Virus record (IMG/VR): IMGVR_UViG_2740892012_000013
Location: 1 to 43,002 of that record
Strand: one strand, 5' to 3'
Length of the DNA: 43,002 nucleotides
Origin: a virus
Lineage: Duplodnaviria; Heunggongvirae; Uroviricota; Caudoviricetes
Shown: one piece after another, positions 36,404-37,373 of the stretch
Layout: each line of letters opens with the position of its first letter
How positions within the stretch are numbered: the first letter of the stretch is position 1
The notes under the pieces: model-generated
Told to the model about the DNA's origin: nothing
The model's input: the letters and a program-made list of their open reading frames with translations, nothing else
Database searches by the model: none
Program-made: the position numbers and the translations under genes

Positions 36404-36634
36404 TCATGAGTAGAAGAAGTATGCCAGTTCCGCTTTTGAGCGCAGCCATTGTCTTGTTTTACATGCTTTAAAAAGCCCATTCATCAATACCTTACCTGGC
36501 ATTTTGCGCTTACCTGTTAAGTGAGTCTGGATATAGTGACTCGTCGTTCCGGCTTCCTGTGCGAAGGCTTCACGCTCATCCGGAGTAAGTGCAAGCCAGT
36601 GCTTTTTGAAATCGAAATGTCCGTTATCGCTCAT
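36404..36634 (-). CDS. Cro-like HTH DNA-binding protein
   Basis: 76 aa; HTH-like segment EAFAQEAGTTSHYIQTHLTGKR; first gene leftward from the divergent operator region. Confidence 0.5.
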   Translation of the reverse strand: MSDNGHFDFKKHWLALTPDEREAFAQEAGTTSHYIQTHLTGKRKMPGKVLMNGLFKACKTRQWLRSKAELAYFFYS

Positions 36635-36679
36635 AGCTATTGCCTGATATTTATTTCAGATAATAAATATTCACCCATA

Positions 36680-36734
36680 AGGTAACAAAAATCAAGGATA
36701 GTTACCTATGGGGTGCATTTACCTGTTGGGTAAT
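36680..36734. promoter_or_regulatory. Divergent immunity-region operators (clustered half-sites)
   Basis: AGGTAAC (36680-36686), GTTACCTATGGGGTGCA (36701-36717) and TTTACCTGTTGGGTAAT (36718-36734) in the 154-bp gap between Cro-like and repressor genes. Confidence 0.55.
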
Positions 36735-36788
36735 ATTGCTTTAAATTGAATCATCTACTGATTCATATATGAGGCGATTTTCCAGAAA

Positions 36789-37373
36789 ATGAAAAGTATC
36801 CAGGACGTCCGCAGGCAAAATCTCAACGACTTGATCGACCGTGAATTCAATGGTGTTCAGACGCGGATGGCAGAAAAACTTGGAACTCAGGCAAATCTGG
36901 TAAACCGCTGGGCTCTTGGCAAGAAGGTTATCGGCGACCAGGTTGCGCGAAAAATTGAAGCTGCCGCCAATAAACCCCGTAACTGGCTTGATATCGATCG
37001 CTCGCTTTCTCAGGAAGGTTTTCAGCCTGTCGGCCCAAGCGACATTGGTCAGCTGGCAGCTCACAACCTGGAACGCTGGATGAGTGAAAGCCGCGACCTT
37101 TCAACTCAGGGAAAACTTCACCGCGCATCCGGCGTCGCCCAGGTGACAATCAGCCGCCTGTTAAACAATGAGGTCAGCGTTTCCATTTCCACCCTGGAGA
37201 ATGTTGCATCCGCATTCGGGCGTCACGGATATGAACTACTGATTCACCCGCACGACCCTGCGACTATCAACTATGACCGCTCACGCTACGCATTGTTACC
37301 CGAAACCGAGAAAGCAAAGATCGAAAGTTACATTGAATTTGTCATCAACCAGAACGAAAAAAACAAACAATAA
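36789..37373 (+). CDS. Prophage repressor candidate: tandem HTH (XRE-like) protein without S24 peptidase domain
   Basis: Two HTH-like segments (...TRMAEKLGTQANLVNRWALGKK... and ...LHRASGVAQVTISRLLNNE...); no GDSM-type Ser/Lys autocleavage motif; cI position, divergent from Cro-like gene. Confidence 0.6.
   Translation: MKSIQDVRRQNLNDLIDREFNGVQTRMAEKLGTQANLVNRWALGKKVIGDQVARKIEAAANKPRNWLDIDRSLSQEGFQPVGPSDIGQLAAHNLERWMSESRDLSTQGKLHRASGVAQVTISRLLNNEVSVSISTLENVASAFGRHGYELLIHPHDPATINYDRSRYALLPETEKAKIESYIEFVINQNEKNKQ

Follow-up and report, generated by a model that had tools for sequence, protein, structure and literature searches.

The immunity region at positions 36404-37373 of the virus DNA analysed here (a stretch of 43,002 nucleotides, referred to as the window) raises the question of how a prophage can be induced if its repressor is unable to cleave itself. 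An earlier note on this DNA had read the protein in the cI position as a non-cleavable repressor and had proposed that induction is driven by antirepressors. Both proposals are supported by the full-length homology of the repressor (Rep) and of a small antirepressor (Ant) to the corresponding pair of phage SPC32H. We consider it highly probable that this phiV10/TL-2011b-like Uetakevirus prophage uses its primary immunity region as a lytic switch of the SPC32H Rep/Ant/LexA type.

Identity of the prophage

Sequence comparison identified the window as a phiV10/TL-2011b-like Uetakevirus prophage, that is, an epsilon15-like podovirus, of a kind common in E. coli. Phage phiV10 is collinear with the window and shows 85-98% DNA identity across most of its length, while the immunity DNA is 97.8-98.3% identical to that of vB_EcoP_ZX5 (ZX5) and phiV10. 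The lambda-like organisation or kinship implied by the initial lambdoid label was not found. The gene layout proposed for 36404-37373 was reproduced exactly in its ORF coordinates, including the divergent orientation of the repressor gene and a 76-aa gene in the cro position. Rep has the same amino-acid sequence (100% identity) as p40 of phiV10 and the ZX5 repressor (ORF21). Its architecture, previously regarded as unusual, turned out to be ordinary, since a repressor with two helix-turn-helix (HTH) units is the norm in the epsilon15/phiV10-like group. Any claim of novelty fails because the phiV10 GenBank record already notes 'two helix-turn-helix motifs' for the identical protein.

Domain architecture of the repressor

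The rep gene (36789..37373, + strand) encodes a prophage repressor of 194 aa, recognized by its ORF, two HTH_3 matches and homology to PDB chain 5D50_A. Pfam placed HTH_3 in two stretches, the best at residues 106-147 (E 1.2e-9). A further match for the N-terminal unit was YdaS_toxin/HTH, at residues 21-61; this HMM check bears out the two HTH units described earlier. In a phmmer search, Rep residues 1-190 aligned to residues 2-197 of 5D50_A (E 4e-42, 42% identity end to end), and 5D4Z (SPC32H Rep) was also matched by sequence. The AlphaFold2 model of Rep, built from 23 sequences (mean pLDDT 78.7), consists of 12 helices and zero strands, with a disordered linker at residues 71-78. When this model was used as a Foldseek query, solely 5D50 and 5D4Z chains were retrieved at E≤0.001.

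Since Rep occupies the cI position beside a divergent gene in the cro position, it might be argued that it belongs to the lambda cI/LexA type, contains a hidden S24-like domain and cleaves itself upon stimulation by RecA. S24 domains are rich in beta structure, of which the Rep model has none. There was no Peptidase_S24 match in Rep even at E≤1 (Pfam), and precomputed Pfam annotation assigned S24 to none of its 86 database relatives, which comprise full-length proteins of about 190-235 aa and a small number of fragments without any Pfam entry. Moreover, two helical domains and a C-terminal helix fully take up the 194 residues, and neither an Ala-Gly nor a Cys-Gly dipeptide occurs anywhere in the sequence. 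The homologous SPC32H repressor is described as inactivated by Ant and not by cleavage (PMC7380047, PMC9638917). A cryptic S24 domain is thus contradicted by the domain analysis, and we rejected it as extremely improbable; the absence of S24 noted earlier was confirmed. As Rep lacks this domain, autocleavage is excluded in the model proposed below.

The two HTH-like units also raise the possibility that Rep is a true tandem-HTH protein, in which both units bind DNA and each monomer contacts two half-sites. The strongest HTH_3 match is indeed the second unit, and Q118 and R123 are invariant in helix 118-125, at positions typical of a recognition helix. However, according to PMC9986798, the N-terminal HTH of SPC32H Rep binds DNA, the middle HTH-like domain dimerises, and the C-terminal domain both tetramerises and binds Ant; PMC9638917 likewise describes the middle domain as one of dimerisation. 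The operators described in the next section argue in the same direction, as they are simple two-fold palindromes with 5-bp arms that suit one HTH per half-site. We therefore find it unlikely that Rep is a tandem DNA binder, because its second HTH-like unit is a dimerisation domain in the solved homologue. Of the tandem-HTH description, the two HTH-like units hold, but a joint role in DNA binding would be an overstatement.

By correspondence with SPC32H Rep, as portrayed in PMC9986798, the window Rep would be made up of an HTH DNA-binding domain (residues about 1-70), the linker, a second HTH_3-like domain for dimerisation (about 83-151) and a C-terminal domain for tetramerisation and Ant binding (about 160-194). 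Residues 92-198 of SPC32H Rep crystallise as an oligomerisation core (PMC9986798, PMC9638917). Identity to SPC32H Rep is 53% in the N-terminal part and 40% in the C-terminal (Ant-binding) part. All 23 homologues in the alignment have F184, and each has either Tyr or Phe at position 181. By our reading of the HMMER alignment, F184 and position 181 appear to lie opposite F190 and F187 of SPC32H Rep, which are tetramer-interface residues (PMC9986798). Conservation of the Rep–Ant interface is nevertheless an assumption, because Rep is just 42% identical to the crystallised protein.

Operators and control elements of the immunity region

The 154-bp spacer between rep and the cro-position gene contains three 15-bp inverted repeats with the consensus TTACC-N5-GGTAA. 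OR1 (TCACCCATAAGGTAA, 36671..36685), a presumed Rep-binding site, overlaps a promoter-like site directed toward the cro-position gene (TTGTTA-17-TATTAT, 36688-36660, - strand, consensus scan). OR2 (TTACCTATGGGGTGC, 36702..36716), revealed by repeat analysis, has two mismatches to the consensus, and OR3 (TTACCTGTTGGGTAA, 36719..36733), supported by both motif and repeat analysis, is the closest to rep. The positions of all three are kept in four phages, namely the window prophage, Tyrion, SPC32H and Klebsiella phage BUCT711. The earlier note had placed three operator half-site clusters here; their number and location between rep and the Cro-like gene were right, but they are full palindromes and not clusters of half-sites.

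The cro-position gene (36404..36634, - strand), an ORF divergent from rep, is the first gene of the rightward early operon on the replication side. Its 76-aa product matches phrog_35 'transcriptional repressor' (E 5.6e-13) and is 76% identical to SPC32H_042, while sequence searches of PDB and Pfam returned no match for it. A single-sequence model is a 5-helix bundle, for which the best Foldseek neighbours, YdaS and the DNA-binding domain of 434 repressor, are weak (E about 1, TM 0.56-0.62). The gene is called 'Cro-like' because of where it lies, its PHROG 35 match and the plausible HTH-type fold of its five helices; its position suggests a regulatory role.

Intrinsic-terminator-like hairpins follow both genes. 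The one after the cro-position gene (36363..36382, - strand) coincides with a terminator annotated in phiV10 at the corresponding position, and beyond it the motif scan found an operator-like site (36334-36348). The hairpin after rep (37394..37413, + strand) was detected by the scan and corresponds to phiV10 annotation. It is followed by the control region of the left operon (37431..37507, + strand), in which a strong promoter-like site (TTGACA-17-AATTAT, 37465-37493, + strand, consensus scan) leading into recombination genes has an operator on either side (37431-37445 and 37493-37507). At its thresholds, the consensus scan found no sigma-70-like promoter for rep or ant. By eye, the best -10 candidate for a rep promoter is a conserved TAATAT within OR3.

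The same motif, allowing at most one mismatch, occurs 14 times in the window compared with 0.73 sites expected, and none of 100 shuffled sequences reached 14. SPC32H has 18 such sites (0.52 expected) and TL-2011b has 14 (0.73 expected). In our own placement, the 14 window sites fall between genes, and several overlap or adjoin a promoter-like site. Rep would be expected to occupy operators of this set.

This arrangement bears on a different identity for Rep, namely an accessory XRE-family regulator or a HigA/VapI-type antitoxin instead of the master repressor. Phage BP9 labels an identical protein 'plasmid maintenance system antidote protein VapI', and NCBIfam gave a weak HigA match (E 1.2e-3, far below the cut-off); beyond this, no informative name came from NCBIfam for Rep, the cro-position protein or any of the Ant proteins. 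Against this stand the cI-like position of rep, accompanied by three operators and by a cro-position gene in divergent orientation, the lack of a toxin gene adjoining rep, and the full-length homology to the SPC32H repressor. In addition, overexpression of the identical protein in ZX5 abolished free phage and lowered holin and endolysin mRNA by 99.97-99.99% (PMC9782041). On position, the ZX5 result and SPC32H homology we rejected the antitoxin identity, which we regard as having hardly any chance of being correct, and continue to treat Rep as the master repressor.

The small antirepressor and its LexA box

The cognate partner of Rep is encoded outside the immunity region, by a gene (ant, 6023..6280, + strand) divergent from the tail fibre gene (3176..5827); the layout in SPC32H is alike. 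Its 85-aa product has no Pfam match and was recognized through PDB chain 5D50_E, 'Anti-repressor protein' (E 1.3e-47), being 88% identical to the crystallised SPC32H Ant. Of the 36 phage records with full-length Rep, 35 encode small Ant as well. The ZX5 record annotates this gene as 'hypothetical protein'.

As the earlier note had claimed, the mini-antirepressor gene is preceded by a near-consensus LexA box (TACTGTATAAATATACAGTT, 5984..6003), located 20-39 bp upstream of the start codon. The ant gene starts 22 bp downstream of CTGTATAAATATACAG (5986-6001), which lies inside this box. In the alignment, the CTGT/ACAG arms of the box are invariant in SPC32H, phiV10 and TL-2011b. An operator-like site (5932-5946, motif scan) lies a further 38 bp upstream. 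As PMC7380047 summarises, Kim & Ryu 2013 showed that LexA controls ant in SPC32H. Two other CTGT-N8-ACAG matches, at 22814 and 27356, were considered as LexA boxes and treated as chance occurrences, because their centres are not rich in A/T and the number expected by chance is 0.64.

The presence of Ant also weighs on the idea that Rep is inactivated by an ImmA/IrrE-type metalloprotease, in the style of ImmR/ImmA or DdrO/IrrE, and not by an antirepressor. DdrO and other XRE repressors were found among the weak structural neighbours of Rep (Foldseek). However, none of the neighbouring ORFs (37527-37679, 37667-37981 and 36053-36316) matched a protease or any other family in Pfam, and their PHROGs have no assigned function; the prophage also encodes a cognate Ant very close to the crystallised partner. 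With no protease match in these three ORFs and Ant encoded, ImmA-type control was rejected; we give it next to no credence and retain antirepressor control.

Two larger Ant-domain proteins

The two full antirepressors said to accompany the small one were also confirmed, as a Bro-N protein and a P22_AR_N protein. In both, the C-terminal domain resembles Ant of SPC32H (E about 1e-13). The Bro-N antirepressor (7749..8444, + strand; Pfam and homology) has 231 aa, with the Ant-like domain at residues 150-226, and is 100% identical to the ORF4 anti-repressor of ZX5. Upstream of its gene, Rfam revealed an isrK-like RNA gene (7516-7591) and a C4 antisense RNA gene (7616-7701; RF01695, 77.7 bits compared with a gathering score of 45). 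The C4 match ends 48 bp before the gene start at 7749, a layout that on sequence appears to be of the P1 immI type. A promoter-like site farther upstream (7436-7465) abuts an operator (7465-7479).

The P22-type antirepressor (9710..10648, - strand; Pfam and homology) has 312 aa and combines a P22_AR_N domain (E 2.5e-45, Pfam) with an Ant-like domain at residues 231-307. A sar-like RNA (10650-10717, Rfam, 45.2 bits compared with a gathering score of 43) and an ORF in the Arc position (10721-10888, - strand), for which Pfam gave no match, lie beside the gene. A divergent ORF in the Mnt position (10979-11440, + strand) has an Arc domain (E 1.2e-14). In TL-2011b, this module is annotated as 'Arc-like repressor / anti-repressor Ant'. 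The three Ant-domain genes are therefore associated with three sets of control elements: the LexA box, the C4 antisense RNA and the P22-like mnt/sar module.

We infer that all three Ant-domain proteins act on Rep. Overexpression of the identical Bro-N anti-repressor in ZX5 reduced the prophage titre from 1e9 to 1e6 and lowered lysogeny (PMC9782041). The ZX5 experiments, all by overexpression, covered Rep and the Bro-N protein and not the small LexA-controlled Ant (PMC9782041).

Proposed mechanism of the switch

In the lysogen, the N-terminal HTH of Rep would bind the 15-bp TTACC-N5-GGTAA palindromes and occlude the early promoters. Occlusion would take place at the three palindromes between rep and the cro-position gene and at the two on either side of the leftward early promoter, and probably also at further promoters that carry an operator. 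According to PMC9986798, SPC32H Rep is active as a tetramer (a dimer of dimers) that its middle HTH-like and C-terminal domains hold together, and this tetramer is disassembled by Ant (also PMC9638917). Upon DNA damage, inactivation of host LexA would free the ant promoter. Small Ant would then bind the C-terminal part of Rep and split the tetramer into dimers with a poor hold on DNA, whereupon lytic transcription would begin.

The operator sites include control regions beside all three Ant-domain genes and two YafO-like toxin cassettes. This opens the tentative and rather doubtful possibility that a single repressor silences the prophage promoter by promoter through distributed operators and that induction is a self-amplifying antirepressor cascade. 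If Rep occupies the distant sites, LexA-gated small Ant would first remove some of the Rep. The Rep-gated, C4-RNA-controlled Bro-N protein would then be de-repressed and remove the remaining Rep, and the P22-immI-type antirepressor would provide a third, SOS-independent input. Relative to SPC32H, Ant is much better conserved than Rep (88% versus 40-53% identity); this may allow it to work in trans against heteroimmune relatives, by analogy with the Gifsy antirepressors. In the papers covered, which did not include the primary reports on SPC32H and epsilon15, we found neither such a genome-wide set of operators nor an arrangement with three inputs described, so this may already be published. 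The distributed operators together with the three antirepressor modules are possibly worth following up.

Judged by sequence, the immunity region is a known SPC32H-type repressor–antirepressor switch. The observation that drew attention to it is correct but ordinary, because the mechanism has been structurally solved in SPC32H and identical proteins have been tested in ZX5. Its value as a discovery is small, the Rep sequence being already present in at least 15 phage records and the mechanism available at atomic resolution from the SPC32H homologue. It has some practical value, in that this immunity type is found in 541 of 5,426 complete E. coli genomes (~10%) and its SOS-to-Ant induction goes unrecognised in routine annotation. 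This route is overlooked because in most annotations Ant appears as 'hypothetical protein' and Rep as 'helix-turn-helix domain-containing protein'.

Comparison with known systems

The Rep-Ant-LexA switch of SPC32H, with PDB entries 5D4Z and 5D50, was reportedly described by Kim & Ryu in 2013 (J Virol) and Kim et al. in 2016 (PNAS). SPC32H belongs to the same genus as the window prophage and shares its gene order, full-length Rep homology, the LexA box before ant, and the same operator, present three times in the spacer that separates rep from the cro-position gene. The two differ in the central 5 bp of the operator, A/T-rich in SPC32H and mixed in the window, and in that SPC32H has small Ant only, whereas the window prophage adds the two larger Ant-domain proteins. 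In phiV10 (p40 with p23/p24) and ZX5 (ORF21, ORF4) the repressor itself is the same; compared with these phages, the window prophage also has the P22-immI-like ant module and the two YafO-like cassettes, as in TL-2011b.

The same logic, with a repressor that is not cleaved, operates in GfoR/GfhR with GfoA/GfhA of Gifsy-1/Gifsy-3 and in coliphage 186 with Tum (PMC3121763). There, as predicted for the window prophage, the small antirepressor gene lies outside the immunity region and is directly controlled by LexA (PMC3121763). However, the Gifsy phages are lambdoid siphoviruses, a phage type different from that of the window. Moreover, an SPC32H-type Ant is described as a tetramer that splits the Rep tetramer (PMC9638917), whereas the Gifsy partners 'most likely interact as dimers' (PMC3121763).

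Both larger modules resemble known immI systems. Like the c4 antisense RNA-icd-ant arrangement of P1/P7 immI, the Bro-N gene lies behind a C4 RNA and an isrK-like RNA, and, as in P22 immI (mnt / arc-ant / sar), the P22_AR_N gene adjoins a sar match and an Arc-domain ORF in the Mnt position. In P1, Op51 is an operator of the primary repressor on the promoter of the immI module; similarly, a window operator lies on the promoter-like site of the immI-like module. Unlike their P1 and P22 counterparts, both window proteins end in a domain homologous to the small Ant of SPC32H.

With the lambda cI/LexA family, the window prophage shares a divergent repressor/cro layout, three operators and a second set of operators at the other early promoter. 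Nevertheless, Rep differs from this family in having no S24 domain, no cleavage site and another oligomerisation domain. The SOS signal would enter at different points: through LexA on ant in the window prophage and through RecA on the repressor in lambda.

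Domain composition of the repressor

Both ORFs that the earlier note had placed at 36404-37373 were confirmed there. One is rep (36789..37373, + strand), coding for the 194-aa repressor Rep, and the other is a divergent gene in the cro position (36404..36634, - strand), whose 76-aa product belongs to phrog_35 'transcriptional repressor' in PHROGs. Rep itself falls into the PHROGs class of phage transcriptional regulators and repressors. As had been claimed, it contains two helix-turn-helix (HTH) units: Pfam maps two HTH_3 stretches (the best at residues 106-147, E 1.2e-9), and the N-terminal unit additionally matches the YdaS-type HTH (residues 21-61).

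We then considered the possibility, raised in the earlier note against its own reading, that Rep harbors a cryptic S24-like domain. Pfam gave no Peptidase_S24 match in Rep even at E<=1, and the Rep sequence has no Ala-Gly or Cys-Gly dipeptide. S24 never occurs among the 86 database relatives, whose Pfam domains are of the HTH type only (about 190-235 aa when full-length; some few fragments lack Pfam entries altogether). The AlphaFold2 model (23 homologues, mean pLDDT 78.7) consists of twelve helices without a beta strand, residues 71-78 forming a disordered linker between two helical domains. When this model was compared with the PDB using Foldseek, only 5D50 and 5D4Z chains were found at E<=0.001. 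The cryptic S24-like domain is therefore rejected at the level of both sequence and fold, and the reported lack of an S24 signature stands.

Relationship to the SPC32H repressor-antirepressor pair

Among PDB entries, 5D50 (titled 'Crystal structure of Rep-Ant complex from Salmonella-temperate phage') matched Rep residues 1-190 through its chain A, at E 4e-42 and 42% identity. A second match was 5D4Z, which comprises the C-terminal two-thirds of this repressor, that of Salmonella phage SPC32H. The 85-aa product of ant (6023..6280, + strand) matches 5D50 chain E, 'Anti-repressor protein' (E 1.3e-47), and is 88% identical to that of the annotated SPC32H ant gene. A near-consensus LexA box, TACTGTATAAATATACAGTT, is located at 5984-6003, 20 bp before the ant ATG; SPC32H, phiV10 and TL-2011b all have its CTGT/ACAG arms unchanged. 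The LexA-boxed mini-antirepressor gene noticed earlier is thus present. Of 36 phage records that encode a full-length homologue of Rep, 35 also encode Ant. PMC7380047 describes how Salmonella prophages, SPC32H among them (Kim & Ryu 2013), are induced: LexA cleaves itself, an antirepressor can then be produced, and this protein inhibits the repressor through protein-protein contact. The homology to the SPC32H pair together with the LexA box supports the proposed non-cleavable repressor and antirepressor-driven induction.

Further evidence comes from Escherichia phage vB_EcoP_ZX5, whose ORF21 repressor and ORF4 Bro-N anti-repressor are 100% identical to the products of 36789..37373 and 7749..8444, respectively. 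Overexpression of the ZX5 repressor reduced free phage to zero, endolysin mRNA by 99.99% and holin mRNA by 99.97%; with overexpressed anti-repressor, the prophage titre fell from 1e9 to 1e6 and repressor mRNA by 75% (PMC9782041).

In SPC32H Rep, the N-terminal domain binds DNA, the next is a middle dimerisation domain, and the C-terminal domain (CAD/TetDloop) forms the tetramer via F187 and F190 and also binds Ant (PMC9986798). Published accounts describe SPC32H Rep on DNA as a tetramer, the dimer being a weak binder, with the DNA-binding pairs drawn from different dimers. In the window protein, the domain matching the middle dimerisation domain is the stronger HTH_3 match of the two. The term 'tandem HTH' therefore holds for the presence of two HTH-like units, but not for tandem DNA binding. 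That the second unit keeps a residual DNA role seems very improbable, and is entertained because its Q118 and R123 are invariant. Across the 23 aligned homologues, F184 never varies and residue 181 is either Tyr or Phe; we read the HMMER alignment as pairing them with SPC32H F190 and F187, respectively.

Operators and promoters of the immunity region

The 154-bp spacer between the cro-position gene and rep contains three operators, OR1 (36671-36685), OR2 (36702-36716) and OR3 (36719-36733). The earlier note was correct in placing three sites here, but they are complete 15-bp palindromes rather than half-site clusters. Tyrion, SPC32H and Klebsiella phage BUCT711 have palindromes at the same three positions, with the TTACC/GGT arms retained. 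OR1 overlaps a promoter-like site (TTGTTA-17-TATTAT, 36688-36660) reading toward the cro-position gene; we read the invariant TTGATT at 36695-36690 as an alternative -35. Neither a consensus sigma-70 promoter nor a clear Shine-Dalgarno sequence was found before rep (36737-36788), where TAATAT, inside and just after OR3, is the sole element conserved across four phages. The rep promoter may be weak or activated in the manner of lambda PRM. A sequence scan detected terminator hairpins with T-runs after rep (37394-37413, + strand) and after the cro-position gene (36382-36363, - strand). Beyond rep, a strong promoter-like site (TTGACA-17-AATTAT, 37465-37493) reads into the recombination genes and has an operator on either side, at 37431-37445 and 37493-37507.

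SPC32H carries the same TTACC-N5-GGTAA palindromes at equivalent places, although their central 5 bp are A/T-rich in SPC32H and mixed in the window. Identity between the two Reps is 53% in the N-terminal part, where the conserved segment NLVNRW falls in predicted helix 35-43, and 40% in the C-terminal, Ant-binding part. The same operator thus appears to serve a much-diverged Rep in SPC32H. Ant (88%) and the cro-position protein (76%) are both far above Rep in identity to SPC32H, and by this measure the antirepressor is far more constrained than its target. This unevenness hints at cross-reactivity between heteroimmune relatives.

Operators throughout the prophage

With one mismatch allowed, TTACC-N5-GGTAA occurs at 14 sites in the window (0.73 expected). 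We mapped these sites onto the ORF lists and onto the annotations of phiV10 and TL-2011b; by this mapping all are intergenic and each lies close to where a gene block starts. Motif matches lie upstream of ant (5932-5946), in the Bro-N module (7340-7354, 7465-7479 and 8511-8525), before the head operon (26827-26841), before terS (30008-30040, starts 30008 and 30026), after the replication genes (34326-34402, starts 34326 and 34388) and after the terminator of the cro-position gene (36334-36348); the immunity-region operators make up the rest. Operators 7465 and 7340 follow a promoter-like -10 by 0-3 bp, the geometry seen at the left-operon promoter. Such sites number 14 in phiV10, 14 in TL-2011b and 18 in SPC32H, many of them at equivalent places. 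Such a set suggests promoter-by-promoter repression over the whole prophage.

Two larger antirepressors

The two full antirepressors claimed earlier were found. They are modular, with a Bro-N (7749..8444, + strand) or a P22_AR_N domain (9710-10648, - strand) followed by a C-terminal Ant-like domain (E about 1e-13 to 5D50_E). In the stretch 7436-7701, a promoter-like TTGAAA-18-TATCAT abuts a Rep operator, and Rfam maps two RNA genes immediately before the Bro-N gene: an isrK-like sRNA (7516-7591, 72.3 bits) and a C4 antisense RNA (7616-7701, 77.7 bits). The arrangement resembles that of P1 immI, here inside a podovirus prophage. Beside the P22-type gene, as in P22 immI, lie a sar-like RNA (10650-10717) whose score only just exceeds the gathering score and, divergently, an Arc-domain ORF in the Mnt position (10979-11440, + strand); the Arc-position ORF (10721-10888, - strand) has no Pfam match. 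This module is absent in phiV10 and present with the same arrangement in TL-2011b. The three Ant-domain proteins of the prophage are thus encoded beside three different sets of control elements. By inference, all three may act on Rep, and Rep may gate two of them.

The Ant-like C-terminal domains of both larger antirepressors are encoded in a 270-nt inverted repeat (8176-8445/9709-9978, 91% complementary). Between its two copies lies a 1,263-bp segment with a YafO-like toxin ORF; this segment might undergo inversion or recombination between the two genes. There are two such paralogous ORFs (46% identity), 6304-6873 (in 6304-7339, - strand) and 8881-9393 (in 8568-9393, + strand), the latter with a weak Pfam YafO_toxin match. 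Each has a small ORF upstream, and each pair starts by a Rep operator-like site (7340 and 8511). The pairs may represent toxin-antitoxin-like cassettes controlled by the prophage repressor.

Comparison with known phages and systems

Most of the window is collinear with phiV10. As phiV10 belongs to Uetakevirus (epsilon15-like temperate podoviruses), the prophage is not lambdoid. The 1.2-kb immunity region shares 97-98% DNA identity with phiV10, O157 typing phages 9 and 10, vB_EcoP_ZX5, TL-2011b and others, and 541 of 5,426 complete E. coli genomes carry it; 15 phage records encode a repressor 100% identical to Rep. The att core reported for ZX5, ATTGAGTGGGAATGATT, is found at 1162-1178. Positions 1-1161 lie outside the prophage and contain two ORFs, one with a glycine- and alanine-rich product, the other looking by size and position like the TL-2011b 'DUF5384 family protein' gene. 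The window stops at the start codon of the integrase gene and so lacks the int-side att site. A tRNA-Arg gene (anticodon TCT, 27164-27240, + strand) lies within the prophage, and SPC32H annotates tRNA-Arg at the same place.

The repressor architecture, regarded earlier as unusual, is instead typical of this phage group; the phiV10 record itself annotates Rep as 'two helix-turn-helix motifs (PF01381); similar to putative repressor epsilon15p38'. By homology, the locus belongs to the known SPC32H-type system. The original observation is confirmed and its interpretation supported. The system is already known from the structure of a homologue, tests on identical proteins and annotation in the reference phage; only the distributed operator set with its three-input antirepressor arrangement might be new.
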